From positions 1,420 to 39,792 of the forward strand of contig MGNX01000103.1 of NCBI GenBank assembly GCA_001796935.1: a stretch of 38,373 bases of DNA, given 5' to 3'. This DNA is from Chloroflexi bacterium RBG_16_60_22 (GTDB taxonomy: Bacteria; Chloroflexota; Dehalococcoidia; Dehalococcoidales; RBG-16-60-22). The notes beneath the pieces are model-generated. The model saw only the letters and a list, made by a program, of their open reading frames with translations. It was not told the origin of the DNA and ran no database searches. The translations under genes were made by a program, and so were the position numbers. This document shows, piece by piece, positions 4,020 through 24,651 of this stretch. How positions within the stretch are numbered: position 1 is the first letter of the stretch; each line of letters starts with the position of its first letter.

Positions 4020-5044
4020 TGGCAAAGGTAAACGAGTTCGATAATATTCTGGACGAATGCCTGGAGCGACTGCTCAGGGGCGAGGCGCTCGGGCCGTGCC
4101 TGGCGGACTACCCCGACCATGCGGACGCGCTCGAGCCCCTGCTCCGCACGGCGCTGGACGCCCGTGACGCGGCGGCCATCCGGCCCCGCCCCGGGTTCCG
4201 CGACCGGGCACGCTACCAGTTCCAGGCGGCCATCCGGGATACGGAAGTCAGGGGAAGCCGCGGTTTCTTCGGCTGGCAGCCCCGCTGGGTGACCGCCGTG
4301 GCCGTGGTCATCGCCCTGCTGGTGGTGGGCAGCGGTACCGTGGCGGCGGCCGGTAACAGCCTGCCGGACGGGCCGCTCTACCCGGTGAAGCTGGCGACCG
4401 AGGCGGTACAGGTGGCATTGACTCCCTCGGCCGCGGGTAAAGCCGAGCTTTACGTCAAGCTGGCGGATAAGAGAGTTGACGAGATAATCAAGATGGCGGA
4501 CAAGGGCAAGGTGAAGCAGGTGGAGCAGGCCACGGACCGCCTCAACGACCAGCTGGTGGCCATGGCCGGTCTGGCCGCCCCCGGCGGCGGGCCGGCGGCA
4601 CAACTGGCGGTACCCGCGCCGGCACCGGTCCCGGCCCCGACGCCCGCCCCCGTGCCGGAGCCAGTCGCCGAACCGGAGGCGGAAGGGCCGCAGATATTGA
4701 TGAAAGCGCCCCCGCCGGCGGAACAGCTGCCGGAGGCAGTACCGGCGCCGGTCATCGAGGTACCGGCAGCCCCCGGGGCGGAAGCCCCGGTAGCTGTCAC
4801 TCCCGGGGCACCGGGACGTTCCGATGAAGCGCATGAAAAAGCGGTCGGGAAGGAACGTAAGAAAGCCGCCAAGGCTGACGAGCAGGAAATATTGAGGGAG
4901 CTGCTTTCCCGCCATGCCCTGGATAACGAGGAAGCCCTGCGGGAAGTGCTGGCCCGGGTACCGGAATCACTCAAGCCAGCTTTACGGCGGGCCCTCGAGG
5001 TGGCCGGCGCCGGCTACGAGCAGGCCCTCAGAAACCTCGACTGA
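4019..5044 (+). CDS. Putative anti-sigma factor, single-pass membrane protein with DUF5667-like domain and Pro/Ala-rich linker
   Basis: 341-aa ORF whose ATG overlaps the sigma TAA by 1 nt (ATAATG). Cytoplasmic N-terminus, TM helix WVTAVAVVIALLVVGSGTVAAAG, then LYPVKLATEAV...KRVDEI, a PAPAPVPAPTPAPVPEP linker and a helical C-terminus. Confidence 0.75.
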   Translation: MAKVNEFDNILDECLERLLRGEALGPCLADYPDHADALEPLLRTALDARDAAAIRPRPGFRDRARYQFQAAIRDTEVRGSRGFFGWQPRWVTAVAVVIALLVVGSGTVAAAGNSLPDGPLYPVKLATEAVQVALTPSAAGKAELYVKLADKRVDEIIKMADKGKVKQVEQATDRLNDQLVAMAGLAAPGGGPAAQLAVPAPAPVPAPTPAPVPEPVAEPEAEGPQILMKAPPPAEQLPEAVPAPVIEVPAAPGAEAPVAVTPGAPGRSDEAHEKAVGKERKKAAKADEQEILRELLSRHALDNEEALREVLARVPESLKPALRRALEVAGAGYEQALRNLD

Positions 5045-5144
5045 CCCTCGGGCGATTTCTCGCGGTAAAAATACCCTTATTGTCGCTAACCCCGCGGCGA
5101 TTTTTTCGTTGTATATAGTAGGAATATCAGAAAGGGGACAAGCA

Positions 5145-5915
5145 ATGAAGAAAATATGGTTAACAGTAATCGGGGCGGCAATTCTGGTACTGGCGGTGGT
5201 CGGCTTTACCGGCTGCAGCCCGGAGGGGGCGACATTCACCGGGGGCAGCCTGGAGATAAAAGGGAGCCTGAACAGCCAGCAGGAGGGAATCTGGGTCAGC
5301 GGCGAGGGTAAGGTGACCGCCGTGCCCGACGTGGCTAACCTGAGGCTGGGCATACAGTCGCAGGAGGGGACCGTCGCCGAGGCGCAGGGTAAAGCCGCCG
5401 CGGCCATGGACAGCGTCATGAAATCATTAAAGGGCAATGGAGTCGCCGAGAAAGATATCCAGACCCAGACCTTCAATATACAAAAGGTCACCCGGTGGGA
5501 CAACGATAATCAACGGGAAATCGTCATCGGCTACCAGGTGACCAATATCGTGACCGCCAAGATAAGGGAGGTCGGCACCACGGGCCGGGTTATCGATGCC
5601 GTGACGATTGCCGGCGGCGACCTGACCCGGGTTGACAGCATAAGCTTCTCGATTGACAACCCCGCCGCCTACTACGGAGAGGCCCGGCAGAAGGCCGTGG
5701 CCGATGCCGCCGCCAAGGCGAAGCAGCTGGCCGACGTGACGGGGGTCAAGCTGGGCAAGCCGACCTATATCTCGGAGAACGTTTACGTACCGGGGCCCGT
5801 TTTCCGCGGCGCTATGATGGAGGCGGCCGCCCCCGCGCCGGTGGAGACGCCTATCAGTCCCGGTGAGCAGGAAATAACCATGAATGTCCAGATTGCCTAT
5901 GCCATCGCGGACTAA
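5145..5915 (+). CDS. SIMPL (DUF541) domain lipoprotein
   Basis: Start at ATG 5145 (MKKIWLTVIGAAILVLAVVGFTGC, a signal peptide plus lipobox), not the ORF-track start at 4914. The body (VTAVPDVANLRLGIQ..., ISPGEQEITMNVQIAY) is typical of SIMPL proteins. Confidence 0.85.
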   Translation: MKKIWLTVIGAAILVLAVVGFTGCSPEGATFTGGSLEIKGSLNSQQEGIWVSGEGKVTAVPDVANLRLGIQSQEGTVAEAQGKAAAAMDSVMKSLKGNGVAEKDIQTQTFNIQKVTRWDNDNQREIVIGYQVTNIVTAKIREVGTTGRVIDAVTIAGGDLTRVDSISFSIDNPAAYYGEARQKAVADAAAKAKQLADVTGVKLGKPTYISENVYVPGPVFRGAMMEAAAPAPVETPISPGEQEITMNVQIAYAIAD

Positions 5916-5979: not shown

Positions 5980-6520
5980 ATGCTTCCCGGGGGTCAGCGT
6001 AGCGCTCCAACTCGCTGTAGAGGCACCCGCAGTACTGCTGGCGGTAGAGGTCCAGGGGCTTGGTGATGTGCCGACTATCCGAGTAGCGTTTCCGAAGGTC
6101 GGCGTAGAGGAACGCCACCCCACGTTGAGCGGCGATGCCGTCGCCGATTTCTTTGATTAAATCATGTTTCTGGTGGGGGCTGATGAGGAGGGTGGTGGTG
6201 AAGGCGTCAAAGCCCTGCTCCCGGGCGGTCTCCGCCGTTTTCCCCAGACGGAGGTCGAAGCAGTGCCGGCAGCGTCCGTCCTCGTGGCCGGCCACCCGGC
6301 GGAAGTACGCCGCCATGTCATAGCCATCGGCGACCGTCAGGGGCAGGTCGAGCTCACGCGCCAGTGATGCCATGCTTTCGAGGCGGCGCTGGTGCTCGGT
6401 GAAGGGGTGGATATTGGGGTTGTACCACAGGCCGCTGACAGCGTAGCCCTGGCGCCGCCAGTGCTCGATGGTGAAGGCGGCGCAGTGGGCGCAGCAGACG
6501 TGGAGGAGTACTTTTTTCAT
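5978..6520 (-). CDS. queH: Epoxyqueuosine reductase QueH (DUF208)
   Basis: 180-aa ORF. MKKVLLHVCCAHCAAF...NPNIHPFTEHQRR...CRHCFDLRL...YCGCLYS, the conserved Cys pattern of QueH. Confidence 0.88.
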   Translation of the reverse strand: MKKVLLHVCCAHCAAFTIEHWRRQGYAVSGLWYNPNIHPFTEHQRRLESMASLARELDLPLTVADGYDMAAYFRRVAGHEDGRCRHCFDLRLGKTAETAREQGFDAFTTTLLISPHQKHDLIKEIGDGIAAQRGVAFLYADLRKRYSDSRHITKPLDLYRQQYCGCLYSELERYADPREA

Positions 6521-6538
6521 GCTTCGGTTGTGTGGTGA

Positions 6539-7558
6539 TTACAGCAGCGTTCCCTGCGGGGGCTTTTTATTGTAGGGGAGGCCGAGGTGCTCGTAGGCGA
6601 GCCGGGTGGCGAGGCGGCCGCGGGGCGTGCGCTCCAGGAAGCCGAGCTGCAGGAGGAAGGGCTCGTAAACGTCCGTGACGGTGTCCGCTTCCTCGCTGAT
6701 GGAGGCGGCGATGGTGTCCAGTCCCACCGGTCCGCCGTTGAACTTCTCGATGATGGTGCGCAGCACCTTGTGGTCGATTTCATCCAGCCCGATGGGGTCG
6801 ACTTCCAGCTTGGCCAGCGCGGCCGTGGCTATCTCCAGGGTAATAATACCGTCGGCCATGACCTGGGCGTAGTCCCTGACCCGCTTGAGGAGGCGGTTGG
6901 CGACGCGGGGCGTGCCGCGGGCACGCCGGGCAATCTCGCTCAGGCCACCGTCGTCCGCCTTTACCTGGAGAATCTCGGCGGAGCGCCTGATGATTTTCTC
7001 CAGCGAGGCGGGTTCGTAGAAATCGAGCCGGTAAACGGCCCCGAACCGGTCCCTCAGGGGCGGGCTGAGCAGGGCGAAGCGGGTGGTGGCGCCCACCAGG
7101 GTAAACTTGGGGAGGTTGAGTCGCAGGCTTCTGGCGCCGGGGCCCTTGCCGATGATGATATCCAGGGCGAAGTCTTCCAGGGCGGGGTAGAGTATCTCCT
7201 CGACCGTGCGGCTGAGGCGGTGGATTTCGTCGATGAAGAGGACATCGTGGCTTTTCAGGTTGGTGAGGATAGCGGCGAGGTCGCCGGTGCGCTCGATGGC
7301 CGGGCCGGAGGTCATCTTGATGTTGACGCCAACCTCGGCGGCGAGGATATAGGCCAGGCAGGTCTTGCCCAGGCCGGGCGGTCCGTAGAAAAGAATATGG
7401 TCGAGAGGTTCACCCCGGCCTTTGGCCGCGGCGATGGCTATCTTGAGGTTTTCCTTGGTCTTGTCCTGTCCGGTGAAATCGGCCAGGTGGCGGGGTCGCA
7501 GGCTGGTATCGAGCGGAGCGTCCTCGGCGTTTGGCTTACCCGATATAATGCGAGATAT
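6539..7558 (-). CDS. ruvB: Holliday junction DNA helicase RuvB (start codon non-canonical or uncertain)
   Basis: The ORF-track ORF (6539..7315) begins at MTSGPAIE. The same frame stays open upstream to a TGA at 7565-7567 and encodes SRIISGKPN...[62 protein letters not shown], which includes the Walker A motif (7361-7384). The 5' end is placed at ATA 7558-7556, 7 nt after GAGGGGGTG. Confidence 0.85.
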
Positions 7559-7609
7559 CTCGGTTCACCCCCTCAGCCCTTCCGTTGGAAGGACAAGCGG
7601 TACAGCGGG

Positions 7610-11666
<4,057 letters not shown>

Positions 11667-11674
<8 letters not shown>

Positions 11675-14600
11675 CTCTTTCGTCTACCTCTTTCCACTGC
11701 GGTTCTTCAAATTCCTTTACTTCCGTCTCCAGCTTGTACTCTTCCTCCAAGGTCTCTTCCGCCGAGGCAATCCGGGTCTCTTCCTCGTTGATTACCTCGA
11801 GGGCGAGGCCCAAACTCTGCAGCTCTTTGACGAGCACCTTGAAGGACTCCGGCACGCCGGGCTGAAGGATATCGTCACCTTTGATGATGGACTCGTAGGC
11901 CTTGGCGCGGCCGGTGACGTCGTCCGATTTTATGGTAAGCATCTCCTGGAGGTTGTGGGCGGCGCCGTAGGCTTCCAGCGCCCAGACCTCCATCTCGCCG
12001 AAGCGTTGCCCGCCGAACTGCGCCTTACCGCCCAGCGGCTGCTGGGTAATCAGGGAGTACGGCCCGGTGGAGCGGGCGTGGACCTTGTCTTCAACGAGGT
12101 GTATCAGCTTCATCATGTAGATGTTGCCCACGGTCACGGGCTGGTCGAAGGGTTCCCCGGTGCGCCCGTCGTGGAGGATGACCTTGCCGTAGGTGGGCGG
12201 GGAGAACCTTCCCTCCGCATTGACCCTTTCCACCACCTTTTCCAGGTCTTCCGGGGAAAGGTCACGGGCGGAGATATTGAGGTCTTCCAGCCAGAGGCGC
12301 AGGCCGATATCACGGGCCCGGCCGGGCTGAGACTCGTCGAAAACGGCCTCGCCGTCATAGCCGTGGCTGTTGACCCAGGCTTTGGCGGTATCCAGGTTGG
12401 GGTGGCTGTTTTTCTTATCGGGATTGGGGTCGACGGAGCCGGATTTCAGGGCAATCCAGGCGCGGCACAGGGCATCCTCGATGGACGTGTCCGTGGCGCC
12501 GTCAAAGACCGGCGTCAGCGCCCGGAAACCCAGCACCTGGCCGGCCCAGCCGAGGTGGGTCTCCAGCACCTGGCCGATATTCATGCGCGAGGGTACGCCG
12601 ATGGGGTCAAGGATGATGTCTACCGGCGTGCCGTCCGGCAGGAAAGGCATGTCTTCCTTGGGGGCGATGATGCTGATGACGCCCTTGTTGCCGTGCCTCC
12701 CGGCCAGCTTATCCCCGACCGAGACGCGGCGTTTCTGGGCAATCCAGACCTGCACCCACTGGTTGACCCCGGCGGGGAGGTCGTCGCCGCCGTTCTTGCT
12801 GTCCTTGCGGGTATAGACCTTGACGTTGATGACCTTGCCCCACTCGCCGTGGGGTACCCTCAGGGAGGTGTCCTTTACTTCCCGGGCCTTTTCCCCGAAG
12901 ATGGCCCGCAGCAGCTTCTCCTCGGCGGAGAGCTCGGTTTCGCCCTTGGGGGTGATTTTACCTACCAGGGTATCGTCCGGCCTGACCTCGGCGCCGATGC
13001 GGATGATGCCCTCTTCGTCGAGTTCGCGCAGGCTTTCCTCACCGACGTTGGGGATATCGCGGGTAATTTCCTCCGGGCCGAGCTTGGTATCGCGGGACTC
13101 CACCTCGTGCTTGTTGATGTGGATGGAGGTGAACATATCTTCCTCGACCATGCGGCTGCTGAGGATAATGGCGTCCTCGAAGTTATAGCCTTCCCAGCTC
13201 ATGAAAGCCACCGTGACGTTCTGTCCCAGCGCCAGCTCGCCGTTCTCCGTGGCGGAGCTGTCCGCCAATACCTGGCCGGCCTCGATGCGGTCGCCTTTGC
13301 TGACCAGGGGACGCTGGTTGATGCAGGTGCCCTGGTTGGTGCGGACGAACTTCATCAGCTCGTAGTCATCGTTGACGCCGTCGTCCCGGGTGATGGCGAT
13401 GCGGTAGCGTGTATTCCCCTTTTCATCGATGATGCCGGACAATTCGGTGACCACGCCGGCGTTCTTGGCGAAGACTACCTGCCGGCTGTGCTTGGCGGCT
13501 TCCATTTCCATGCCGGTGGCCACCAGCGGCGCCTCGGGGCGGAGCAGGGGTACCGCCTGGCGCTGCATGTTGGCGCCCATGAGGGCGCGGTTGGCATCGT
13601 TGTGCTCCAGGAAGGGCGTCAGGGCGGTGGCGACACTGACTACCTGCTTGGGGGAGACGTCCATAAGCTCGATTTTATCCTGCGTTTCCAGGAGGTAACC
13701 GTCACCCAGCCGGGCCTCAATCCGCTTCTCCTTGAACTGGTTGTTCTCGTCAAGGGGGGCGTTGGCCTGGGCGATGACGTACTTGTCCTCCTCGTCGGCC
13801 GGGAGGTAGATGATTTTATCCGAGACGAAGGGTACCACCTTCACCTTGCGGCCCTTGAGCTTGGCCAGTTTTCCGGCAATCTGGGGGGTAACGACCGTTT
13901 CGGCTTTGACGATGACGGTGTCTTTTTCACCGTGAACGTCCTGGGTTACCATCCTGCCGAGGAGCTTTTCATCCTTGCTGCTCAACTCGTGGATGACCTT
14001 GCGGTAGGGCGTTTCGATGAAGCCGTACTCGTTGATGATGCTGTAGGTGGCCAGTGACCCGATGAGGCCGATATTGGGTCCTTCCGGCGTCTCGATGGGG
14101 CAGATACGCCCGTAGTGGGAGAAGTGGACGTCACGCACCTCGAAGCCAGCCCTTTCCCGGGAGAGGCCGCCGGGGCCCATCGCCGAGAGGCGGCGCTTGT
14201 GGGTCAGCTCCGCCAGCGGGTTGGTCTGGTCCATGAACTGCGAGAGCTGCGAGCCGCCGAAGAACTCCCTCACCGCGGCGACGATGGGGCGGATATTGAC
14301 CAGGGCGCTGGGGGTGACCGCCTCGGTGCCGATGATACTCATGCGTTCCCGGACGACCTGCTCGAGGCGCAGGAAGCCGATGCGGAACTGGGTCTGGACC
14401 AGCTCGCCGACGGTGCGGACGCGCCGGTTGCCGAGGTGGTCGATATCGTCGCCGGTGTCCTGGCCGTTATCAATCATGATGATATGGCGGATAATCTCGA
14501 TGATGTCTTCCCGGGTCAGCGTCCGCTCCTTGAGGCTGACCTCGAGGCCGAGGCGCTTGTTCAGCTTGTAGCGGCCGACACTGCCCAGGTCGTAACGCGC

Positions 14601-15428
14601 CGAATCGAAGAACAGGTTCTTTATCAGCTTGCGGGCGTTGTCCAGCGAGGGCATCTCGCCGGGATGCAGCTTTTTGTAGATATCCAGCAGGGCCTCTTTC
14701 TCATCGGTGATGGCCGGCTCTCGCTCCATGGTCGTCCTGATGAAATGATAGTCGGAGGCGTCATCCTCTTTCTTGAACAGCTTGAGCAGCTCCTCGTCGC
14801 TGCCGTAGCCGATGGCGCGGAGCAGCGTGGTGATGGGAATCTTGCGCTTGCCGTCTATCTTGGCGGATATCACGTTCCGGTTGCTCGTCTCGAACTCCAG
14901 CCAGGCCCCTCGTGTGGGGATGAGCTTGGCATGGCACAGATAGCGGCCGGTGACCGGGTCTTCCTCGGCGGTGAAGTAGACGCCCGGCGACCGCAGCAGC
15001 TGGCTGACGACGACCCTTTCCGCGCCGCTGGTGATGAAGGTGCCCTTGGCGGTCATCAGCGGAATATCGCCGAAGAAGAGGTCCTGCTCCTTGATTTCCC
15101 CCGTTTCCTTGACCAGCAGGCGGACCTTGACGTAGAGGGGGGAGGAGTAGGTCTGGTCCCTCTCGTGGCACTCCTGCTCGGAATGGCCGGGACGGGGCTC
15201 CCGGAACTCGTAGGCGATAAAGCTGAGCTCCAGCCGGTTGCCGGTGAGGTCCTTGATGGGGGATACCTCTCCCAGCAGGGCTTTAAGGCCGTCTTCCTGG
15301 AACCTCTGGAAGGAATCAAGCTGCACTTTAATCAGGTTGGGCACATCCAGGACATGGGGCAGCTTGGCGTAAGACTTTCTGGTAACGGTCATCCTGGAAT
15401 CAGGCGCGGGCGTGGGCGATGTAAACAC
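11667..15428 (-). CDS. rpoB: DNA-directed RNA polymerase subunit beta
   Basis: 1253-aa ORF. GTG start at 15428 with AAGGAG 8 nt upstream. Conserved blocks include [43 protein letters not shown] and [13 protein letters not shown]. Confidence 0.98.
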
Positions 15429-15584
15429 TATCTCTACTCCTTAGACGAATACAGCAATACTCGTGCGTTTAGCGCTAGCTTTCAGAACGATGGCGTGCGT
15501 GCGCGACATATGCAGCCATACAGCGGATATATATAATTGGGAGGGTAGAAACAAAAAACACTTGGGGCATTATTACAAATATAA

Positions 15585-15614
15585 ATCATACTACATTCAT
15601 TACAGGGCTGTCAA
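15585..15614 (-). promoter_or_regulatory. Strong sigma-70-type promoter candidate for rpoBC (TTGACA-18 nt-TATGAT)
   Basis: On the minus strand, TTGACA (complement of 15609-15614) and TATGAT (complement of 15585-15590) with an 18-nt spacer. An A/T-rich UP-like tract lies just upstream. Implies a ~150-nt leader before rpoB. Confidence 0.55.
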
Positions 15615-15703
15615 GTACGGCGCCACGAAATATTTACTAAAAATCCGGCGAGATGTTAACGCTATTAAAACCGGGCGTTGAGATTATCATCGGGGCGGTA
15701 GCC

Positions 15704-15712
15704 TGCTATAAT
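15704..15712 (+). promoter_or_regulatory. Extended -10 promoter candidate (TGcTATAAT) for nfeD
   Basis: TGCTATAAT at 15704-15712, 14 nt upstream of the nfeD ATG region. No good -35 at proper spacing. Confidence 0.35.
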
Positions 15713-15725
15713 ATGTTGGAGCGTT

Positions 15726-16136
15726 ATGGACAGGAAGATGACCCTGGCCAGGCTGGTACTGGCCGTTGTCAGCACGATACTGGAGGAGGGCGCCATCTAC
15801 GTCATCTGGCGCTGGCTGCTGCCCGAGTTCGATATCAGGCTGCCGGTCGCGGCGCTCATCACCGCCATGGCGGTGTGGGCGGCCTTCGGGACCTGGCTTT
15901 TTATCTTCACCACCCGCACCCTGAGGCGGCAGATACCGGTCGGCCTGCCGTCCATGGTGGGCACCCGCGGCAGGGTCGCCAGCCGGCTGGCCCCGGAGGG
16001 CATGGTGCGGATAAAGGGCGAGCTGTGGGGAGCGACCTCCAACGCCGACAATATCGATAAAGGGGAGGATATCGTGGTGGTGGGGGAGGACGGACTCAAG
16101 CTGCTGGTACGCCGGGACGGCGACGTTAAACGTTGA
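15726..16136 (+). CDS. NfeD family membrane protein
   Basis: 136-aa ORF with two or three hydrophobic helices, then an OB-like C-terminus GMVRIKGELWGATS...GEDIVVVGEDGLKLLVRR typical of NfeD. Confidence 0.8.
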   Translation: MDRKMTLARLVLAVVSTILEEGAIYVIWRWLLPEFDIRLPVAALITAMAVWAAFGTWLFIFTTRTLRRQIPVGLPSMVGTRGRVASRLAPEGMVRIKGELWGATSNADNIDKGEDIVVVGEDGLKLLVRRDGDVKR

Positions 16137-17232
16137 AGAGGAAGGTGATGACATCACCGTCCCGGACGATGTAATCCTTGCCTTCAAGTCGTAGCAAGCC
16201 CTGTTTACGCGCCTCGGCGATGCCGCCACATTTGACGAGGTCGTCAAAGCCGATACCCTCGGCGCGGATGAACCCCCTCTCCATGTCCGTGTGAATCTTC
16301 CCGGCGGCTTTGAGGGCGGTGGTTCCTCTTTTCACGGACCAGGCCCTGACCTCGCCGGAGGCGATGGTGAAGAAGGAAATGAGGTCGGAAAGCTCGTAAG
16401 ACATCTTGACGGTGCGCTCCAGCCCGGACACCGCCAGGCCGTAATCGGCGCGGAACTCCGCGGCGGCGGTCTCGTCCAGCCGGGCCAGCTCCATTTCCAG
16501 CTTGCCGCAAAGGGTGATGGCGCGGCAACCGGCGCCGGAGAACTCCTTATTCAGTTCCGTTTCCAGCGCCGTCGCCCCGGCCAGCCTCTCCTCACCGATG
16601 TTCACCACGATGAGGAGAGGCTTGGCGGTGAGGAACTGGTAGTTGGTGACGATTCTGGCCGGCCCCGGCTCCAGGGAAAGCTGCCGGATGGGCTGGTCAC
16701 TCTCGAGGTCGGTCTTGAGCCGGAGCAGGATATCTTTCTCCTGAAGGAGGGCCTGGCGCTCCGGGGGTCTGGCGCCCTTCAGGGAGTTCTCCAGCCGCTC
16801 CAGCCTTCTTTCCATGATGGCGAGGTCGGAGAAGACAAGCTCCAGGTTGAGGGTGCCGATATCCCTCCGGGCGTCCAGGCTGCCTTCGGGGTGCGGAATG
16901 GTATCATCAACGAAGGCACGCACGACGCAGATGAGGGTGTCCACGGTGCTGAGCTGGTTGAGCAGCTCGCCGCCGATGCCTTTATCCCGGGCCAGGCTCT
17001 TCACCGAAGCCCCGACGTCGATATACCTGGCCTCGGCGGGGACGACCTTCCTGGGGTGGAGCATCGCGTCGAGGACCTTCAAGCGGGGTTCGGGGACATG
17101 GGCGGTGCCGACGTGCGGCGAGAGGCCGTCCGCGGCATGGGCGGTGGTGTCCGCTTTGCCCCCGGTCAGGGCGTTGAAGACGGTCGTCTTGCCGCTCTGG
17201 GGCAGGCCGATAATCCCGATGTTAATACTCAT
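16126..17232 (-). CDS. ychF: Redox-regulated ATPase YchF
   Basis: 368-aa ORF. MSINIGIIGLPQSGKTTVFNALTG (P-loop), ...TGR/TGS-like C-terminus FIRAE...GKDYIVRDGDVITFLFNV. Confidence 0.93.
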   Translation of the reverse strand: MSINIGIIGLPQSGKTTVFNALTGGKADTTAHAADGLSPHVGTAHVPEPRLKVLDAMLHPRKVVPAEARYIDVGASVKSLARDKGIGGELLNQLSTVDTLICVVRAFVDDTIPHPEGSLDARRDIGTLNLELVFSDLAIMERRLERLENSLKGARPPERQALLQEKDILLRLKTDLESDQPIRQLSLEPGPARIVTNYQFLTAKPLLIVVNIGEERLAGATALETELNKEFSGAGCRAITLCGKLEMELARLDETAAAEFRADYGLAVSGLERTVKMSYELSDLISFFTIASGEVRAWSVKRGTTALKAAGKIHTDMERGFIRAEGIGFDDLVKCGGIAEARKQGLLRLEGKDYIVRDGDVITFLFNV

Positions 17233-17264
17233 CAGCGCGGAGTCCCGGGGCTGTCAGCGGGTGG

Positions 17265-17504
17265 TCAGCGGCCCTTTTTGACGATATCCCGGGCTTTCTT
17301 GAGGGCCAGGTCCCGCTCCTCGACGTTCAGGCGGTCGTTGGCGGCCAGGTTGAGCAGTACCAGCAGGGACTCGTGTGAGGCCATCTCGCCGAGCTGGTTG
17401 ACGGCCTGGTTTCTCATCTTGGTGGAAAGCTGCATATCCGTGGCGATGCTCGCCAGCTTCTTCAGTTCATCAACCCGGTTGACTTCTTCAGGGTTTTCCG
17501 ACAT
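17265..17504 (-). CDS. Small hypothetical protein, HEAT-repeat-like
   Basis: 79-aa ORF. ATG preceded by GAGGTG. Helical repeat-like sequence (RNQAVNQLGEMASHESLLVLLNLAANDRL). 32 nt upstream of, and co-oriented with, ychF. Confidence 0.55.
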   Translation of the reverse strand: MSENPEEVNRVDELKKLASIATDMQLSTKMRNQAVNQLGEMASHESLLVLLNLAANDRLNVEERDLALKKARDIVKKGR

Positions 17505-17654
17505 CGTAGCTCACCTCTCGACTTCAGCGGTTGGGCTGCCCGGTGTTTGGTGTTCTCAGAGCGATTATTCCCTAACGGCGGGGTTTTGTCAACCTTAACC
17601 ACCGGCCGCGGGTATGGTAAAATAGGTAAACCCTTGACCACGGGAGGACCGGGC

Positions 17655-18659
17655 TTGCTGCACGTGCTCATCGGCGAGGACGACTATTCCATCCGCCAGG
17701 CGCTCGAGGAGATAAAGAAAGGTATCGGTGATGCCACCGCCCTGATGACCAACACGACGGTCATCGACGGGCGGCAGGCGACGCCGGAGCAGCTGCGGGC
17801 GGCCGCCGGGACGGTGCCCTTTCTGGCGGAGAAAAGACTGGTCATCGTCGAGGGGCTGCTGGAGCGCTTCGAGCCCTCCAACCGGACCGGCCGGAAGAAA
17901 GCGACACGCCAGTCGGAGAACCCGGAAGCCTGCCGGGCCATCGCGGAAAGCGCCGCCCGGATGCCGGACTTCGCGGAGGTGGTGGTGCTCGGCGGCAGGG
18001 TCGGCGGTACCAACCCGATGCTGCGCGCGTTGTCAGCCTTAACGAAAGTGAAAGTGTTCCCTTTGCTCAAGGACGATTCTTTGCGCCGCTGGATTGGGCA
18101 GCGGGTGAGCGGGGCGGGCGGCGCCATCGCGCCAGGGGCGGTGGACCTGCTGGTCACGTTCGTGGGCCGTGACCTGTGGACCATGGCCAGCGAGGTGGAC
18201 AAGCTTCTAAATTTCGCCGGGGAGCGCCGCATCGAGGCGGAGGATGTCCGGGAGGCGGTCAGCGGGGCCCGGGAAGCCAACGTTTTTGCCATGATTGACG
18301 CCATTATGGAGTCGAGGGTGGGGCGGGCCGAGGAGCTTTTTCAGCAGCTCCTCAGGGAGGGAGCGGCACCGTCCCAGCTCCTGGCCATGCTGGCAAGGCA
18401 GGTCAGGCTGATATTCCAGGTCAAGGAGCTGCGGGGCCAGCGCGTGCCCCGCAACGAAATTCAGTCGAGGCTGGGACTGAAGTCTGACTTCGTGGTAGGG
18501 AAGGCCTGGGGGCAGGGTGACCGGTATACGACGTCGCGACTGCGCGAGGTGTACCACCGCCTCCTGGAGACCGACCTGTCCATCAAGACCGGCAAGTACG
18601 AGGGCGAGCTGGCCCTGAACATCCTTATCGCCGAGCTCGGCCAGCGCGCTTCCGCTTGA
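17655..18659 (+). CDS. holA: DNA polymerase III subunit delta
   Basis: In-frame TTG at 17655 preceded by GGGAGG at 17642-17647. Product begins (M)LHVLIGEDDYSIRQALEEIK, matching typical HolA N-termini. The 36 extra residues from the track start at 17547 look non-coding. Confidence 0.85.
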   Translation: MLHVLIGEDDYSIRQALEEIKKGIGDATALMTNTTVIDGRQATPEQLRAAAGTVPFLAEKRLVIVEGLLERFEPSNRTGRKKATRQSENPEACRAIAESAARMPDFAEVVVLGGRVGGTNPMLRALSALTKVKVFPLLKDDSLRRWIGQRVSGAGGAIAPGAVDLLVTFVGRDLWTMASEVDKLLNFAGERRIEAEDVREAVSGAREANVFAMIDAIMESRVGRAEELFQQLLREGAAPSQLLAMLARQVRLIFQVKELRGQRVPRNEIQSRLGLKSDFVVGKAWGQGDRYTTSRLREVYHRLLETDLSIKTGKYEGELALNILIAELGQRASA

Positions 18660-18692
18660 CAAATCCGGGAAACAGGCTAAAGTGGAGGTGAC

Positions 18693-19682
18693 ATGACGGG
18701 ACAGCGGGAAGCGCCGGTCCTGGCCGTGGACATCGGCGGCACCAAGATAATGACCGCGATTGTCCCGGCCGACGGCCGGGTGCTGGCTAAAGACGTCTCT
18801 CCGACTTTGGCTGGTGAAGGGGTACCGTCGGTGGTCGACCGACTCTGCCGGGCCGCTGAAAAGCTCGTCAAGTCCAACAACCTGAAGTTTACGCAGCTGG
18901 CCGGCATCGGTATCGCCTGCGCCGGCGCCATCAATACGGGGCGGGGGATGGTTACCGTCTCCCCGAACCTGCCGGGCTGGGTGGATATCCCGCTGGCGCA
19001 GATGGTAAGGGAGAGGCTGAAAGTCGACACCTTCCTGGTCAACGATGCCAGCGCCGCCGCCCTGGGGGAACACCGGTACGGGGCTGGCAAGGGGGTCAAA
19101 CACCTGGTGCTGCTCACGCTGGGCACCGGCATCGGCGGCGGCATCATCGCCGACGGCAGGCTCTACCTGGGGGCCAGCGGCGCCGCCGGCGAAATCGGGC
19201 ACATGACCATCGATGTCAACGGCCCGGAGTGCCCCGGCGGCCACACCGGCTGCCTGGAGGTGCTGGCCTCCGGCACGGCGATAGTCCGGGAAGCCGTGCG
19301 GCGTTTAAAAAATGGAGAAGAGTCTTCCCTCACGGAAATGGTCGGGGGGAAGGCGGGGGGCATCACGGCGGAAACGGTGGAAAAAGCCGCCAGGAATGGC
19401 GACGGCCTGGCGCGGGAAGTGCTGGCGCGGGCCGCCTACTACCTGGGCGTGGGCCTGGCCAACGTGGTCAATATCTTCAACCCGGAGATGGTTATCCTCG
19501 GCGGGGGCATGGCCGGGATGGATGACCTTCTCATCGACCCGGCCCGGCGCCTGGTGGCCGAGCGGGCGTTTCCCGTATCGGCGGGGGCGGTGAAAATTGC
19601 CACGGCGCGGCTGGGCAACGAGGCCGGGGTCTACGGCGCGGCGGCCTTCGTGCGGGAGGCCGGGAAAGGGAGGAAACCATGA
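18693..19682 (+). CDS. ROK family glucokinase
   Basis: 329-aa ORF. LAVDIGGTKI, ...GEIGHMTIDVNGPECPGGHTGCLE (ROK zinc motif CxxGxxGC). GGAGGTG RBS. Confidence 0.88.
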   Translation: MTGQREAPVLAVDIGGTKIMTAIVPADGRVLAKDVSPTLAGEGVPSVVDRLCRAAEKLVKSNNLKFTQLAGIGIACAGAINTGRGMVTVSPNLPGWVDIPLAQMVRERLKVDTFLVNDASAAALGEHRYGAGKGVKHLVLLTLGTGIGGGIIADGRLYLGASGAAGEIGHMTIDVNGPECPGGHTGCLEVLASGTAIVREAVRRLKNGEESSLTEMVGGKAGGITAETVEKAARNGDGLAREVLARAAYYLGVGLANVVNIFNPEMVILGGGMAGMDDLLIDPARRLVAERAFPVSAGAVKIATARLGNEAGVYGAAAFVREAGKGRKP

Positions 19683-20539
19683 AGCTCCGTAAAGCGGTGA
19701 TAATCGCGGCGGGGCGGGGCACCCGTTTCCTGCCGGTAACACGGTCGCAGCCCAAGGAGATGCTGCCGCTGGTGGACCGGCCGGTGCTCCAGTACGCGGT
19801 GGACGAGGCGCTCGATTCCGGCATCGACCAGGTCGTCATGGTGACCGCCCGGGGGAAGCCGGGCATCGAGGACTACTTCGACCGCTCCTTCGAGCTGGAG
19901 GTATTCCTCAAGCAGAAGGGGGATACCGAACGACTCCGGCAGGCGCAGGAGCTCTCCCGGAAGGTAAACGTCTGCTACGTCCGGCAGAAGGAGCAGCTGG
20001 GACTGGGACACGCCATCGCCACGGCCCGGGACGTGGTCGGGGAGGAGCCCTTCGCGGTGATACTCCCCGACGACATTATCGACAGCGAAGTGCCGACCAT
20101 GCGGCGGATGGCGGAAATCTATGAAAAATATAAGGTCGGCGTGGTGGCGGTGGAGAGGGTCGGCGACGAGGATACCCGGAAGTACGGCATCATCGAGCCC
20201 AAAGAGGTGGCGGATGGAGTTTACGAGGTGCTCGGCCTGGTGGAAAAGCCGGAGTCGGCGCAGGCACCGTCCCGACTGGGCATCGTGGGGCGGTATATCT
20301 TCACGCCGGAGATATTCGACGCCATCGATGATACCCCGCCGGGCCAGGGCGGGGAGATACAGATAACCGACGCCATGCAGCGGCTGCTCGGCAAGCAAAA
20401 GCTCTACGCCTACGAGCTGGAGGGGGTGCGGCATGACACCGGCACGCCGCTGGGCTGGCTCAAGGCCAACATCGCTTATGCCCTGAAGCGTGAGGACATC
20501 GGGCCGGAGCTGCGGGACTACCTCAAAAAGCTGAAATAG
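19679..20539 (+). CDS. galU: UTP--glucose-1-phosphate uridylyltransferase
   Basis: 286-aa ORF. KAVIIAAGRGTRFLPVTRSQPKEMLPLVDRPVLQY. ATGA overlap with the preceding kinase gene. Confidence 0.92.
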   Translation: MKLRKAVIIAAGRGTRFLPVTRSQPKEMLPLVDRPVLQYAVDEALDSGIDQVVMVTARGKPGIEDYFDRSFELEVFLKQKGDTERLRQAQELSRKVNVCYVRQKEQLGLGHAIATARDVVGEEPFAVILPDDIIDSEVPTMRRMAEIYEKYKVGVVAVERVGDEDTRKYGIIEPKEVADGVYEVLGLVEKPESAQAPSRLGIVGRYIFTPEIFDAIDDTPPGQGGEIQITDAMQRLLGKQKLYAYELEGVRHDTGTPLGWLKANIAYALKREDIGPELRDYLKKLK

Positions 20540-20548
20540 CGCTGGATA

Positions 20549-20579
20549 TGTCATTGCGAGCCGCAGGCGAAGTAATCTC
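20549..20579 (+). repeat. Short intergenic repeat, family A (TGTCATTGCGAG...GCGAAGTAATCTC)
   Basis: Inverted partner at 20703-20737. The two share the termini TGTCATTGCGAG and (C/T)AATCTC. Confidence 0.7.
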
Positions 20580-20594
20580 TCCTCCAATCTGCCC

Positions 20595-20625
20595 GTCATT
20601 CTCCGGCTTGACCGGAGAATCCAGC
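20595..20625 (+). repeat. Short palindromic repeat, family B (GTC-ATTCTCCGG-cttga-CCGGAGAAT-CCAGC)
   Basis: Perfect 9-bp stem (20598-20606 / 20612-20620) with a 5-nt loop. Flanks GTC...CCAGC are shared with the inverted copy at 20641-20668. Confidence 0.75.
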
Positions 20626-20640
20626 CGGCCATACACTTCT

Positions 20641-20668
20641 GCTGGATTCCCGCCTTCGCGGGAATGAC
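20641..20668 (-). repeat. Short palindromic repeat, family B, inverted copy (GCTGG-ATTCCCGC-cttc-GCGGGAAT-GAC)
   Basis: Perfect 8-bp stem (20646-20653 / 20658-20665) with a 4-nt loop. The reverse complement reads GTCATTCCCGCGAAGGCGGGAATCCAGC. Confidence 0.75.
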
Positions 20669-20702
20669 ATCTTGGTTCAGGTGATTTACAGGTTTATTTA
20701 TC

Positions 20703-20737
20703 GAGATTGCTTCGTCGCTGCGCTCCTCGCAATGACA
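20703..20737 (-). repeat. Short intergenic repeat, family A, inverted copy
   Basis: The reverse complement reads TGTCATTGCGAGGAGCGCAGCGACGAAGCAATCTC. It pairs with 20549-20579 as the outer arms of a nested inverted arrangement. Confidence 0.7.
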
Positions 20738-20754
20738 GGTTGATTGCCACTTCG

Positions 20755-20784
20755 TTGACAGCTACGGCCTGTTGCCCCTAAAAT
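20755..20784 (+). promoter_or_regulatory. Sigma-70-type promoter candidate for alaS (TTGACA-18 nt-TAAAAT)
   Basis: TTGACA at 20755-20760 and TAAAAT at 20779-20784 with an 18-nt spacer, ~40 nt upstream of the alaS ATG. Confidence 0.5.
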
Positions 20785-20825
20785 TACAGGTAAGCAACCG
20801 GCAGGTTTTTACCCGGAGCCATTAC

Positions 20826-22835
20826 ATGAACAGCGACGAGATACGAACGGTGTTTCTGAAATTCTTCGAGGAGAAGGGACATAAAGTCATTCCCAGCTCC
20901 TCCCTGGTGCCCAAAGGCGACCCCACGCTGCTGCTGACCACGGCCGGCATGGTGCAGATAAAGCCCTACTTCCTGGGGGAGCAAAAACCCCCCGGCCGGC
21001 GCCTGGCGTCCTGCCAGAAGTGCTTCCGCACCACCGATATCGAGTCGGTGGGCGATGCCACCCACCTGACCTTCTTCGAGATGCTGGGCAACTTCAGCGT
21101 CGGCGACTACTTCAAGAAGGAGGCCATCGCCTGGGCCTGGGAGTTCTTCCTCGACCGGATGAAGCTGGCGCCGGAAAAGCTCTGGATAACCATCTACCTC
21201 GACGACGACGAGTCGTTCCAATACTGGCGGGATATCGGCGTCCCCGCGGAGAAAATCCTGAGGTTCGGGGAGGAGGACAACTTCTGGGGGCCGGCGGGCA
21301 GCTCCGGTCCCTGCGGGCCGTGCAGCGAAATCCACTTCGACTTCGGGGAGGACCGGGGGTGCGGCCAACCGGGCTGCAAGCCCAACTGCAAGTGCGGTCG
21401 TTTCGCCGAGATATGGAACCTGGTCTTTACCCAGTACAACCAGGACGAAGCGGGCCAGCGCACGCCGCTGCCGCGCCCGAACATCGATACCGGCATGGGG
21501 CTGGAAAGGCTCGCGGCGGTGATGGCGGGCAAGACGTCCGTCTACGAGACGGACCTGTTCCAGCCGCTGCTGGACGTCGTGGCGAAGCTGACGGGCAGGC
21601 AATACGGTTCGGATGCCGACGACGATAACGCCATGAGGGTGGTGGTGGAGCACGGGCGCGGCCTGGCCTTCCTCATCGCCGACGGCGTTATCCCCGGCAA
21701 CGAGGGGCGGGGCTACGTGCTGCGGCGGTTGTTACGCCGGGCGGCGCTTTTCGGCCGGAGGCTGGGGCTGGACAAGCCTTTCCTGGCCGGGATTGCGGAT
21801 ACGGCCGTCCGCCGGATGGGCCACGTCTATCCCGAGCTGAAGCAGCGGCGGAGCTTTATCAAGAAAGTAATCGAGCTGGAGGAGACGCGGTTTGAGGAAA
21901 CGCTGAACACCGGGCTGGAGATTATCGAGGGGGTGATGGCCGTTGAGAGCGCCCGGAAGAAAAAAGAGATATCCGGGGCGGAGGCTTTCCGCCTCTACGA
22001 TACCTACGGCTTCCCCGTGGAGCTGACGAAGGAGATTGTGCAGAAGTCCGGCTTCACGGTGGACATGGACGGCTTCGAGAGGGAGATGGAGAAGCAGCGG
22101 GAGAGGGCCCGGGCCACCCACAAGTTCGACGTTGCCGTCGGCGATACTGCTGGACTCAAGCTTGATGTTGCCCTACTTCCTGGGGGAGCAAAAACCCCCC
22201 GGCCGGCGCCTGGCGTCCTGCCAGAAGTGCTTCCGCACCACCGATATCGAGTCGGTGGGCGATGCCACCCACCTGACCTTCTTCGAGATGCTGGGCAACT
22301 TCAGCGTCGGCGACTACTTCAAGAAGGAGGCCATCGCCTGGGCCTGGGAGTTCTTCCTCGACCGGATGAAGCTGGCGCCGGAAAAGCTCTGGATAACCAT
22401 CTACCTCGACGACGACGAGTCGTTCCAATACTGGCGGGATATCGGCGTCCCCGCGGAGAAAATCCTGAGGTTCGGGGAGGAGGACAACTTCTGGGGGCCG
22501 GCGGGCAGCTCCGGTCCCTGCGGGCCGTGCAGCGAAATCCACTTCGACTTCGGGGAGGACCGGGGGTGCGGCCAACCGGGCTGCAAGCCCAACTGCAAGT
22601 GCGGTCGTTTCGCCGAGATATGGAACCTGGTCTTTACCCAGTACAACCAGGACGAAGCGGGCCAGCGCACGCCGCTGCCGCGCCCGAACATCGATACCGG
22701 CATGGGGCTGGAAAGGCTCGCGGCGGTGATGGCGGGCAAGACGTCCGTCTACGAGACGGACCTGTTCCAGCCGCTGCTGGACGTCGTGGCGAAGCTGACG
22801 GGCAGGCAATACGGTTCGGATGCCGACGACGATAA
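20826..22835 (+). CDS. alaS: alaS ORF 1: AlaRS residues 1-448 fused to a 221-codon out-of-frame tail
   Basis: Native sequence runs through ...GDTAGLKLDV. It then reads copy 2 in the wrong frame (ALLPGGAKTPRPAPG...) to TAA 22833-22835. Confidence 0.7.
   Translation: MNSDEIRTVFLKFFEEKGHKVIPSSSLVPKGDPTLLLTTAGMVQIKPYFLGEQKPPGRRLASCQKCFRTTDIESVGDATHLTFFEMLGNFSVGDYFKKEAIAWAWEFFLDRMKLAPEKLWITIYLDDDESFQYWRDIGVPAEKILRFGEEDNFWGPAGSSGPCGPCSEIHFDFGEDRGCGQPGCKPNCKCGRFAEIWNLVFTQYNQDEAGQRTPLPRPNIDTGMGLERLAAVMAGKTSVYETDLFQPLLDVVAKLTGRQYGSDADDDNAMRVVVEHGRGLAFLIADGVIPGNEGRGYVLRRLLRRAALFGRRLGLDKPFLAGIADTAVRRMGHVYPELKQRRSFIKKVIELEETRFEETLNTGLEIIEGVMAVESARKKKEISGAEAFRLYDTYGFPVELTKEIVQKSGFTVDMDGFEREMEKQRERARATHKFDVAVGDTAGLKLDVALLPGGAKTPRPAPGVLPEVLPHHRYRVGGRCHPPDLLRDAGQLQRRRLLQEGGHRLGLGVLPRPDEAGAGKALDNHLPRRRRVVPILAGYRRPRGENPEVRGGGQLLGAGGQLRSLRAVQRNPLRLRGGPGVRPTGLQAQLQVRSFRRDMEPGLYPVQPGRSGPAHAAAAPEHRYRHGAGKARGGDGGQDVRLRDGPVPAAAGRRGEADGQAIRFGCRRR
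20963..22169 (+). repeat. Tandem duplication copy 1 (1,207 bp)
   Basis: Compared block by block against 22170-23376 with no mismatch seen. Boundary is ambiguous by 1 nt (shared G). Confidence 0.93.
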
Positions 22836-24651
22836 CGCCATGAGGGTGGTGGTGGAGCACGGGCGCGGCCTGGCCTTCCTCATCGCCGACGGCGTTATCC
22901 CCGGCAACGAGGGGCGGGGCTACGTGCTGCGGCGGTTGTTACGCCGGGCGGCGCTTTTCGGCCGGAGGCTGGGGCTGGACAAGCCTTTCCTGGCCGGGAT
23001 TGCGGATACGGCCGTCCGCCGGATGGGCCACGTCTATCCCGAGCTGAAGCAGCGGCGGAGCTTTATCAAGAAAGTAATCGAGCTGGAGGAGACGCGGTTT
23101 GAGGAAACGCTGAACACCGGGCTGGAGATTATCGAGGGGGTGATGGCCGTTGAGAGCGCCCGGAAGAAAAAAGAGATATCCGGGGCGGAGGCTTTCCGCC
23201 TCTACGATACCTACGGCTTCCCCGTGGAGCTGACGAAGGAGATTGTGCAGAAGTCCGGCTTCACGGTGGACATGGACGGCTTCGAGAGGGAGATGGAGAA
23301 GCAGCGGGAGAGGGCCCGGGCCACCCACAAGTTCGACGTTGCCGTCGGCGATACTGCTGGACTCAAGCTTGATGTTGAAGGTACCGATTTCGTTGGGTAT
23401 CACCGTCTGGAGCAGAAAGCCGTAATCGCTAAGCTGTTGATAGCGGGCGAGGAAGCCAGCACCATATCGGAAGGGCAGGCAGCCGGAATCATTCTAAATA
23501 CAACACCCTTCTACGGGGAGATGGGTGGGCAGGTCGGCGATACGGGTGAAATCGTTAGGCAGAACGGTCGCTTTACCGTCACCAATACCGTTCGAGGTCT
23601 CAATGACGTTGATGTTATCATCCATGAGGGGAAGGTCGCCGGAGGGACTTTATCCGTCGGCGATGCGATAAAGGCGGTGGTGGACATGGAGCGGCGGCGG
23701 GACATCGCCCGCAACCACACGGCCACCCACCTTCTCCAGGCCGCTCTCCGGGAGGTGCTGGGGGAGCATATCCAGCAGCGGGGCTCGCTGGTGGCGCCGG
23801 AGCGCCTCCGCTTCGACTTCTCCCACCTGGCGGCCATGACGCCGGAGGAAATAAAGAACGTACAGCGCATCGTCAACGACAAGATACGCCGCAACGTGAA
23901 GGTGTATGATGAAGAACTTCCTTACCAGGCCGCCGTGAAGTCGGGGGCCATCGCTCTCTTCGACGAGAAGTACGGGGACGTCGTCCGGGTGATGCGCATC
24001 GGCGAGCCGGTTATCAGCGCCGAACTCTGCGGCGGCACCCACGTGGCCTTCACCGGAGAAATCGGCTATTTCTATATTCTCGGTGAAAGCAGCATCGGCG
24101 CGGGGCTGCGCCGCATCGAGGCGGTGACCGGCCGGGGGGCCGAATCGCTCATTGAGCGGCGCCTGGCCAGCCTGGATAAAATCGCGCAGTCGCTGGAGGC
24201 CTCGCCGGACGACGTCGGGGAGAAAGTGGCCGGGCTGGCCGCCGAGCTGGACAAAGAACGGAAACAGGTGCGCCGTCTGGAGAGGGAAATCAGCCACCGC
24301 CGCGCCGACGACCTTCTCGCCAGGGAGGAAACGGTCAAGGGGATAAAGGTTATCGCGTCCGCGGTGCCGTCATCGAGCATCGAGGCGCTGCGGGAGATGA
24401 GCGACCGCCTGCGGGACGGGATGAAGAGCGGCATCGTGGTGCTCGGCTCGGTGTATAACGACCGGCCCATCTTCGTGGCTGCGGTTACCCCGGACCTGGT
24501 AGCCAGGGGGTATCACGCCGGCGACATCGTCAAGAAGGTCTCGCAGGTGACCGGGGGCGGTGGCGGCGGCAAGGCCGGCTTCGCCCAGGCGGGCGGACGG
24601 GACAAGGGCAAGCTGGACGAAGCCCTGGGTCTGGTGAAGAGCTTGATATGA
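22165..24651 (+). CDS. alaS: alaS ORF 2: AlaRS residues 47-872 (start uncertain; ATG created at the duplication junction)
   Basis: The frame is open from 22036 but becomes native AlaRS only from 22171 (PYFLGEQKPP...). The nearest in-frame ATG is at 22165-22167. No obvious Shine-Dalgarno sequence precedes it. Confidence 0.45.
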   Translation: MLPYFLGEQKPPGRRLASCQKCFRTTDIESVGDATHLTFFEMLGNFSVGDYFKKEAIAWAWEFFLDRMKLAPEKLWITIYLDDDESFQYWRDIGVPAEKILRFGEEDNFWGPAGSSGPCGPCSEIHFDFGEDRGCGQPGCKPNCKCGRFAEIWNLVFTQYNQDEAGQRTPLPRPNIDTGMGLERLAAVMAGKTSVYETDLFQPLLDVVAKLTGRQYGSDADDDNAMRVVVEHGRGLAFLIADGVIPGNEGRGYVLRRLLRRAALFGRRLGLDKPFLAGIADTAVRRMGHVYPELKQRRSFIKKVIELEETRFEETLNTGLEIIEGVMAVESARKKKEISGAEAFRLYDTYGFPVELTKEIVQKSGFTVDMDGFEREMEKQRERARATHKFDVAVGDTAGLKLDVEGTDFVGYHRLEQKAVIAKLLIAGEEASTISEGQAAGIILNTTPFYGEMGGQVGDTGEIVRQNGRFTVTNTVRGLNDVDVIIHEGKVAGGTLSVGDAIKAVVDMERRRDIARNHTATHLLQAALREVLGEHIQQRGSLVAPERLRFDFSHLAAMTPEEIKNVQRIVNDKIRRNVKVYDEELPYQAAVKSGAIALFDEKYGDVVRVMRIGEPVISAELCGGTHVAFTGEIGYFYILGESSIGAGLRRIEAVTGRGAESLIERRLASLDKIAQSLEASPDDVGEKVAGLAAELDKERKQVRRLEREISHRRADDLLAREETVKGIKVIASAVPSSSIEALREMSDRLRDGMKSGIVVLGSVYNDRPIFVAAVTPDLVARGYHAGDIVKKVSQVTGGGGGGKAGFAQAGGRDKGKLDEALGLVKSLI
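22170..23376 (+). repeat. Tandem duplication copy 2 (1,207 bp)
   Basis: Identical to 20963-22169. Six-frame ORFs recur at a +1207 offset (21194..21532 = 22401..22739; 22036 vs 23243 starts). Confidence 0.93.

Follow-up and report, generated by a model that had tools for sequence, protein, structure and literature searches.

Has the essential alaS gene of an uncultured bacterium been broken by a duplication within itself, or was a second copy of part of the gene written into the contig when the genome was put together? The window analyzed here is a stretch of 38,373 nucleotides of core chromosome from an uncultured Dehalococcoidales bacterium, represented by a metagenome contig. Its alaS locus lies on the forward strand at positions 20826 to 24651; as written it measures 3,826 nt with the duplication, and 2,619 nt (872 aa) minus one copy.

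A perfect internal repeat and its reading frames

Exact comparison of copy 1 (20963-22169, forward strand) with copy 2 (22170-23376, forward strand) gave 0 mismatches over 1,207 nt, and the shadow ORFs repeat at a +1207 offset, which bears out both the base-perfect adjacent copies and the recurrence of six-frame ORFs described in an earlier note on this DNA. The copies are direct and adjacent with a single novel junction, as expected of a real tandem duplication. The 1,207-nt unit of copy 1 holds AlaRS residues 47-448 and the third base of codon 46, while through copy 2 ORF1 runs in the +1 frame and ORF2 in the native one. A perfect repeat of this length is far beyond chance; it is the sole long repeat within the window, and no exact direct repeat of at least about 100 nt was found in 86 other loci (1.19 Mb, mostly from related Dehalococcoidia). 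The window has no N characters.

The start codon of alaS is the ATG at 20826, and 448.0 native codons precede the junction. The loss of frame claimed at 22170 agrees with the codon arithmetic: ORF1 (20826-22835, forward strand, 669 aa) runs through 448 native codons and then through 221 out-of-frame codons to the TAA at 22833-22835. The native frame returns in copy 2, as had been proposed, within ORF2 (22165-24651, forward strand, 828 aa), which begins with M-L, continues from native P47 onward and stays open to the TGA at 24649-24651.

Comparison with Pfam matched ORF1 to profile positions 1-435 of 552 of tRNA-synt_2c, and ORF2 to positions 43-552 of the same profile together with tRNA_SAD and DHHA1, both of them complete; the domains of an AlaRS (tRNA-synt_2c, tRNA_SAD and DHHA1/C-Ala) are found in that order. 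ORF1 also spans residues 1-441 of the E. coli AlaRS (3hxu, chain residues 4-438) and the Aquifex AlaRS (1riq, chain residues 4-432), and by this extent its native part contains the aminoacylation and tRNA-recognition domains in full. The earlier statement that the AlaRS frame is lost stands as far as the shift at 22170 is concerned, but it falls short of a plain knockout, since ORF1 retains the entire catalytic fragment. Neither ORF is a full AlaRS as written, ORF2 being without residues 1-46, and a single uninterrupted AlaRS frame is obtained only after one copy is removed.

The junction puts the ATG at 22165 in frame with copy 2, and as a result a gene caller annotated an 828-aa AlaRS without residues 1-46; this product (P0001, from the source contig of 47,852 nt) is 100% identical to ORF2. 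Upstream of this ATG, a weak GGA provides the only Shine-Dalgarno-like bases, whereas the true start at 20826 is preceded by GGAG. A leader of 286 nt (20540-20825, forward strand) separates the NTP-transferase gene from alaS, and a scan of the whole window at Rfam gathering thresholds gave 0 matches, with no known RNA element in this leader.

Removal of one copy gives a translation of 872 aa, the intact AlaRS that had been anticipated. This collapsed form aligns end to end with full-length relatives at 73-75% identity and is ungapped at both repeat boundaries, and a single, colinear and uninterrupted alaS was present in all 80 of the related genomes retrieved, a duplicated one in none (0 of 80). 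The alignment and the single copy in these 80 genomes uphold the claim that the repeat arose from an intact gene. A scan of GTDB genomes returned relatives at ≤74% identity only. Every gene examined in the 38 kb other than alaS is intact, including ruvA, ruvC, yebC, queH, ruvB, rpoC, rpoB, ychF, holA and the ROK gene, as well as the NTP-transferase gene, ruvX, dnaJ, gpsA, plsY, der, polA, fpg and others, which indicates that the damage to alaS is one structural event and not general sequence decay.

The junction and its genomic setting

The novel junction, at 22158-22181 on the forward strand, joins AAGCTTGATGTT to GCCCTACTTCCT between dissimilar flanks. Period-1207 identity spans 20963 to 22170, leaving 0 shared bases on the left and 1 (G) on the right; these limits confirm the junction of AAGCTTGATGTT with GCCCTACTTCC and the 1-nt (G) microhomology that had been assigned to it. 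The longest run common to both breakpoints within ±15 nt is 4 nt. Joins made at random would share 1 nt or more in 46% of cases, which puts the microhomology of this junction at chance level. In Salmonella, duplications verified by experiment carried microhomology of at least 11 bp, and junctions as poor in microhomology as this one were inseparable from artificial chimeras (PMC3411829). Against the above-chance microhomology of at least about 8-11 bp expected of a real duplication, only 1 nt was found here, which makes a real duplication less likely while still allowing a homology-free event. Identical copies joined at arbitrary positions without homology, as expected of a false duplication in assembly, are what the locus contains.

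The junction 24-mer had 0 matches in JGI metagenome contigs, and a 47-nt pattern with wobble tolerance, drawn from the center of the repeat, likewise had 0 matches. Exact-protein look-ups of ORF1 (with two possible starts), P0001, the upstream NTP-transferase and the ROK protein returned no match. A query of 125 aa across the right boundary, aimed at protein fragments from the same species, found nothing above 77% identity, and it is a weak negative since P0001 itself was missed too.

Five other assemblies contain the same species at 99.3-100% identity, and none of the five spans alaS. Besides the MAG GCA_035256185.1, the species is represented in ERZ4902961, ERZ27254738, ERZ28563958 and SRR4030067. 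In the MAG GCA_035256185.1, contigs end at window position 20144 and resume at 23842, and four further same-species contigs begin at 24478-24502. Strain divergence is about 0.2% in the flanks as compared to about 5% within the 3′ part of alaS (about 25-fold), and one same-species contig changes in alaS to an allele that is about 70% identical; among strains, alaS is a divergence hotspot. The same-species assemblies all break around alaS, which marks the hard-to-assemble region expected of an assembly false duplication, and tangled regions of an assembly graph are where scaffolders and gap fillers re-join contig ends. However, the breaks in GCA_035256185.1 fall beyond the repeat boundaries, by 819 nt and 466 nt; they neither mirror nor support the duplication and are counted against the artefact reading.

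Artefact, recent duplication or split synthetase

We consider it probable that the repeat is a false duplication, arising from assembly, scaffolding, gap closure or a chimeric junction. The organism would then have one intact 872-aa alaS, and a second copy of 20963-22169 would have been added in assembly or post-assembly processing. Contig ends overlapping by 1,207 nt may have been joined with the overlap untrimmed, a gap-closing or contig-extension step may have put already present sequence in again, or a repeat-resolving assembler may have circled a graph loop once, the loop having come from a few chimeric library molecules. This origin is favored by the combination of perfect copies, a chance-level junction and a break in an essential gene that is intact everywhere else, and by a location in which other assemblies of this species, made independently, break up. 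It is further favored because the contig as written encodes no full-length AlaRS, because the 80 related genomes have one colinear alaS and the 86 loci are free of exact direct repeats at or above about 100 nt, and because the junction 24-mer is missing from JGI metagenome contigs. Known errors of assembly include false duplications (PMC9516828, PMC2864568), and in amplified libraries chimeric junctions have been described that link sequences lying close to each other (PMC1855051). Several points count against the artefact, among them the predominance of inverted over direct joins in MDA chimeras (>85% inverted; PMC1855051). Another is that the junction shows neither Ns nor any other mark of scaffolding. 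An assembler built on plain de Bruijn graphs needs junction-bearing reads and cannot invent a junction, so that some molecule, real or chimeric, or a post-assembly join must be invoked, which is a further weight on that side. The same is true of the complete catalytic fragment in ORF1, with which a real duplication would not necessarily be instantly lethal.

A real and very recent tandem duplication, formed when illegitimate recombination or a template switch joined sequences of almost no homology, and carried by part or all of the population, is possible but rather doubtful. On this reading it would be a short-lived variant, harmful or close to lethal and without a function of its own, which the assembler took up into the consensus. 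A spontaneous duplication looks just so, head-to-tail with a single novel junction, a recent event fits the zero divergence between the copies, and real junction-bearing molecules would supply what a graph assembler needs. In populations of bacteria, duplications often arise spontaneously and are unstable (PMC3411829; PMC12607827). The full catalytic fragment in ORF1 matches crystallized AlaRS fragments, so temporary survival of the cell may be possible. However, neither ORF gives a full AlaRS, and E. coli N461, which is comparable to the native part of ORF1, has low affinity for tRNA-Ala (Kd above 32 µM) and did not rescue a yeast ALA1 knockout (PMC10036535), while ORF1 carries a 221-aa nonsense tail as well. 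Entry into the consensus would also require a high frequency of a deleterious variant, the 1-nt microhomology is below that of verified bacterial duplications (PMC3411829), and the junction is without an independent sighting, its 24-mer having been sought in JGI metagenome contigs.

A duplication that is not only real but tolerated seems very unlikely to us, whether ORF1 provides aminoacylation and ORF2, translated from the ATG at 22165 that the junction creates, provides editing and the tRNA-binding C-Ala domain in trans, or a second alaS elsewhere covers the function. The native 448 residues of ORF1 stop just past the tRNA-recognition domain and wholly cover the crystallized catalytic fragments, and ORF2 has an in-frame ATG with complete tRNA_SAD and DHHA1. 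There are natural precedents in the AlaRS of Nanoarchaeum equitans, which is split into alpha and beta parts (PMC11392972), and in a mini-AlaRS that functions while lacking both the editing and the C-Ala domain (PMC10036535). Yet this split layout is conserved in none of the 80 related genomes, signs of adaptation such as sequence divergence are lacking, the ATG at 22165 has only weak Shine-Dalgarno-like bases upstream, and bacterial N461 performs poorly without C-Ala in cis (PMC10036535). The position of the right-hand breakpoint is not significant, since about half of random breakpoints keep the catalytic fragment whole. That a real, tolerated duplication turned a canonical AlaRS into a catalytic fragment plus an editing/C-Ala protein in a free-living Dehalococcoidales bacterium is, in our judgment, highly improbable.

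Of the three explanations that the earlier note had left open, the artefact is thus judged most likely and a recent or subpopulation variant possible, whereas nothing supports a deliberate or engineered change, which can practically be dismissed. The clean structure is the sole point in favor of engineering; the lineage, an uncultured member of the Dehalococcoidales, comes from environmental metagenome contigs only, no vector, marker or scar sequences are found, and the repeated stretch consists of native DNA alone.

Several other candidates were rejected. Programmed frameshifting or recoding would require a +1 shift at GTT-G-CCC, where there is no known signal, and its product would hold an internal 402-aa repeat that is absent from all relatives. 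A mobile element, intron or intein does not fit inserted DNA that consists of alaS alone, with other repeats and RNA families not found. Tandem diverged alleles or strains (heterotype false duplication) do not match copies that are identical even though alaS varies strongly from strain to strain. An assembly from noisy long reads is unlikely, as a frameshift occurs in no other gene of the window. Finally, selection was not read from the coincidence of the right breakpoint with a domain boundary, about half of the possible positions sparing the catalytic fragment.

Meaning and known parallels

If the repeat is an artefact, as we think probable, its value lies in quality control. A public contig then bears a mis-annotated 828-aa "AlaRS" (P0001) without the first 46 residues, and the genome would be wrongly scored as if an essential marker gene were broken or duplicated; the 872-aa collapsed form is the correct gene. 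If it is real, the locus would be a rare case in which a fresh duplication, independent of homology, is seen directly within an essential synthetase gene, and could be a natural experiment on a bacterial AlaRS as separate catalytic and editing/C-Ala pieces. If it is both real and tolerated, it would be a snapshot of the origin of split or mini synthetases. There is no sign of a novel type of genetic element or system.

Among known systems, the false duplications of assemblies (PMC9516828; PMC2864568), which include contig overlaps left untrimmed and errors of gap closure or of graph loops, resemble the alaS repeat in their perfect or near-perfect adjacent copies, in their occurrence in difficult regions and in the apparent gain or break of a gene without a biological counterpart in relatives. 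However, the described cases are mostly from diploid eukaryotes with diverged haplotypes, whereas the alaS copies are identical and lie on a metagenome contig. Chimeras of amplified or ligated libraries, such as those of MDA, share with it joins within the same molecule, close together and with little or no homology, but MDA chimeras are inverted in more than 85% of cases (PMC1855051) and the alaS repeat is direct.

Spontaneous tandem duplications of bacteria are likewise head-to-tail, with one join and undiverged copies, as in a survey of Salmonella in chemostats (PMC3411829) and in short tandem gene duplications (PMC12607827). They differ in that verified Salmonella junctions carry at least 11 bp (PMC3411829) as compared to 1 nt at alaS, and in that they usually amplify whole genes, whereas here an internal fragment of an essential gene is repeated out of frame. 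The split AlaRS of N. equitans and the mini-AlaRS of Tupanvirus are similar to the present layout in that a catalytic module is encoded apart from the editing/C-Ala part (PMC11392972; PMC10036535). Those layouts are evolved and conserved, while the alaS ORFs described here overlap by a perfect 1.2-kb repeat, ORF1 has a nonsense tail, ORF2 has a crippled catalytic domain, and the layout occurs in no relative.

Structure of the duplication and its junction

By exact comparison, we found 0 mismatches over 1,207 nt between the two adjacent copies within alaS (20963-22169 and 22170-23376), as the earlier note had claimed from inspection by eye. The period-1207 identity stops at the left edge of the repeat and continues for one base (G) beyond its right edge, so the junction at 22169/22170, where ...AAGCTTGATGTT is followed by GCCCTACTTCC..., has the 1 nt of microhomology that had been reported. 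The shadow ORFs likewise repeat at a +1207 offset, and the whole structural description of the duplication in that note proved right in every particular. The window contains zero N and no other long repeat besides the 1,207-nt unit, and exact direct repeats of at least about 100 nt were absent from 86 other loci (1.19 Mb in total).

The junction is the main internal clue to the origin of the duplication. Of random joins, 46% would be expected to share 1 nt or more, which places the alaS junction at the level of random juxtaposition, and the sequences flanking the two breakpoints show no resemblance to each other. In a survey of Salmonella chemostat populations, junctions with so little microhomology were not distinguishable from artificial chimeras, and the experimentally verified duplications had at least 11 bp (PMC3411829). 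Neither the junction 24-mer nor a wobble-tolerant pattern from the repeat interior had a match in JGI metagenome contigs.

Reading frames and the annotated protein

The alaS gene starts at ATG 20826 on the forward strand, with GGAG upstream, and its 286-nt leader (20540-20825) has no Rfam match at the gathering threshold, e.g., no T-box. As had been proposed, the native frame runs for exactly 448 codons up to the junction and then gives way to 221 out-of-frame codons ending at TAA 22833-22835 (ORF1, 20826-22835), while copy 2 carries the native frame on to TGA 24649-24651. With one copy deleted, the gene measures the predicted 2,619 nt and encodes 872 aa. This protein has the complete tRNA-synt_2c / tRNA_SAD / DHHA1 architecture and aligns over its full length, at 73-76% identity, with AlaRS from MAGs of uncultured Dehalococcoidales and Dehalococcoidaceae; both repeat boundaries are free of gaps. 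The duplication is therefore secondary to a normal gene, in agreement with the earlier claim.

An 828-aa database protein, P0001, is 100% identical to the window and is found on a single 47,852-nt contig. Its start maps to ATG 22165, which does not lie in the reading frame of the native gene (within ...CTT GAT GTT...) and is brought into the frame of copy 2 by the junction (22165-22170). Thus, the duplication is present in the public contig, and automated annotation gave an 828-aa “AlaRS” (22165-24651) without residues 1-46. This annotation hides the duplication and, in practice, leaves an N-terminally truncated, mis-annotated AlaRS in public databases. A protein search with a 125-aa verbatim AlaRS query, based on word-based candidate collection, missed P0001 itself, and negatives from such short queries are weak.

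Genomic surroundings and other assemblies of the species

The window is core chromosome, and besides the duplicated alaS all examined genes are intact: ruvA, ruvC, yebC, a GNAT acetyltransferase, an ECF sigma factor with a DUF5667 protein, a SIMPL protein, queH, ruvB, rpoC, rpoB, ychF, holA, a ROK kinase, an NTP-transferase, ruvX, dnaJ, gpsA, plsY, der, an SDR, a carbamoyltransferase, an AI-2E transporter, polA, and fpg. No Rfam family (gathering threshold) and no tRNA gene was found in the window. The genes for the ECF-type sigma factor (3480-4019), the DUF5667 protein (4019-5044), and the SIMPL/DUF541 protein (4914-5915) possibly form a sigma/anti-sigma envelope module. Several long opposite-strand ORFs in this GC-rich window (e.g., 3728-4915, 19631-20632, and 8786-11791) match no family and resemble shadow ORFs. 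In ruvB (6539-7558, minus strand), the sequence coding for the conserved N-terminus lies, in frame, ahead of the first canonical start codon (ATG 7315), and no ATG, GTG, or TTG separates that ATG from the in-frame stop preceding it. A 339-aa RuvB would need ATA 7558, or an ATT close by, as its start codon; a strong Shine-Dalgarno-like GAGGGGG lies just ahead of this ATA, and the identical ruvB of GCA_035256185.1 carries a 339-aa annotation from the same ATA.

Across 80 related genome loci, alaS is in no case duplicated or interrupted. The same species is present in five other assemblies (99.3-100% identity over ruvX-dnaJ and beyond), and it is also represented by a 21-kb contig of the independent MAG GCA_035256185.1 (99.76% identity to 6126-20144). 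None of these contigs spans alaS. In GCA_035256185.1, DATEYM010000201.1 stops at 20144, inside the NTP-transferase gene, and DATEYM010000154.1 begins at 23842; among the contigs matched, the 5' two-thirds of alaS is wholly missing. Contigs of four different assemblies all start at 24478-24502, and one of them (L002) continues to the left of 24478 into another alaS allele, with identity of only about 70%. Between the window and GCA_035256185.1, 23 of 32 mismatches fall inside 23869-24294 (about 5% divergence, against about 0.2% downstream). The 3' part of alaS (23842-24502) is a hotspot of strain-level divergence, suggestive of recombination in alaS, or of allele replacement there, in this population. 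Given these contig breaks, the allele switch, and the local divergence, alaS is strain-variable and assemblies of the species fragment there; the two breaks in GCA_035256185.1 fall outside the repeat, 819 nt and 466 nt from its boundaries, and so do not mirror the duplication.

Origin of the duplication

False duplications (PMC9516828; PMC2864568) and chimeric junctions (PMC1855051) are both documented classes of error. Among the three explanations offered in the earlier note, we consider an assembly artefact, a false duplication, the most likely, because the junction is at chance level and has no independent sighting, the copies are identical, the only damage in an otherwise intact stretch hits an essential single-copy gene, and the duplication lies where assembly graphs tangle. 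Such a duplication could have arisen from a contig overlap left untrimmed, from an error of gap closure or extension, or from loop traversal set off by chimeric molecules. However, there is no scaffold scar and no N, and a pure de Bruijn graph assembler requires molecules that bear the junction. It also counts against an artefact that MDA chimeras are mostly inverted (PMC1855051). For these reasons, a real tandem duplication, very recent or present as a minority variant, stays a serious rival, albeit a less likely one. Within the latter reading, a tolerated “split AlaRS” would be a small and quite improbable subset.

The 448 native residues of ORF1 span the complete crystallised fragment of E. 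coli AlaRS 1-441 (3hxu, chain residues 4-438) and the Aquifex catalytic fragment (1riq, chain residues 4-432); since this fragment is retained, the duplicated allele is, as read from its sequence, not a simple null, and split and mini AlaRS occur naturally (PMC11392972; PMC10036535). Yet the native part trails a 221-aa nonsense tail, the bases upstream of ATG 22165 are only weakly Shine-Dalgarno-like, and the comparable N461 fragment of E. coli has a low affinity for tRNA-Ala (Kd above 32 µM) and does not rescue a yeast ALA1 knockout (PMC10036535). A genome carrying the duplicated allele alone would be badly impaired at best. The engineered change that the earlier note also raised is very unlikely, as the lineage is uncultured and the duplicated DNA is purely native. 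Overall, the duplication does exist in the deposited sequence but probably not in the organism, and it is no new kind of system.
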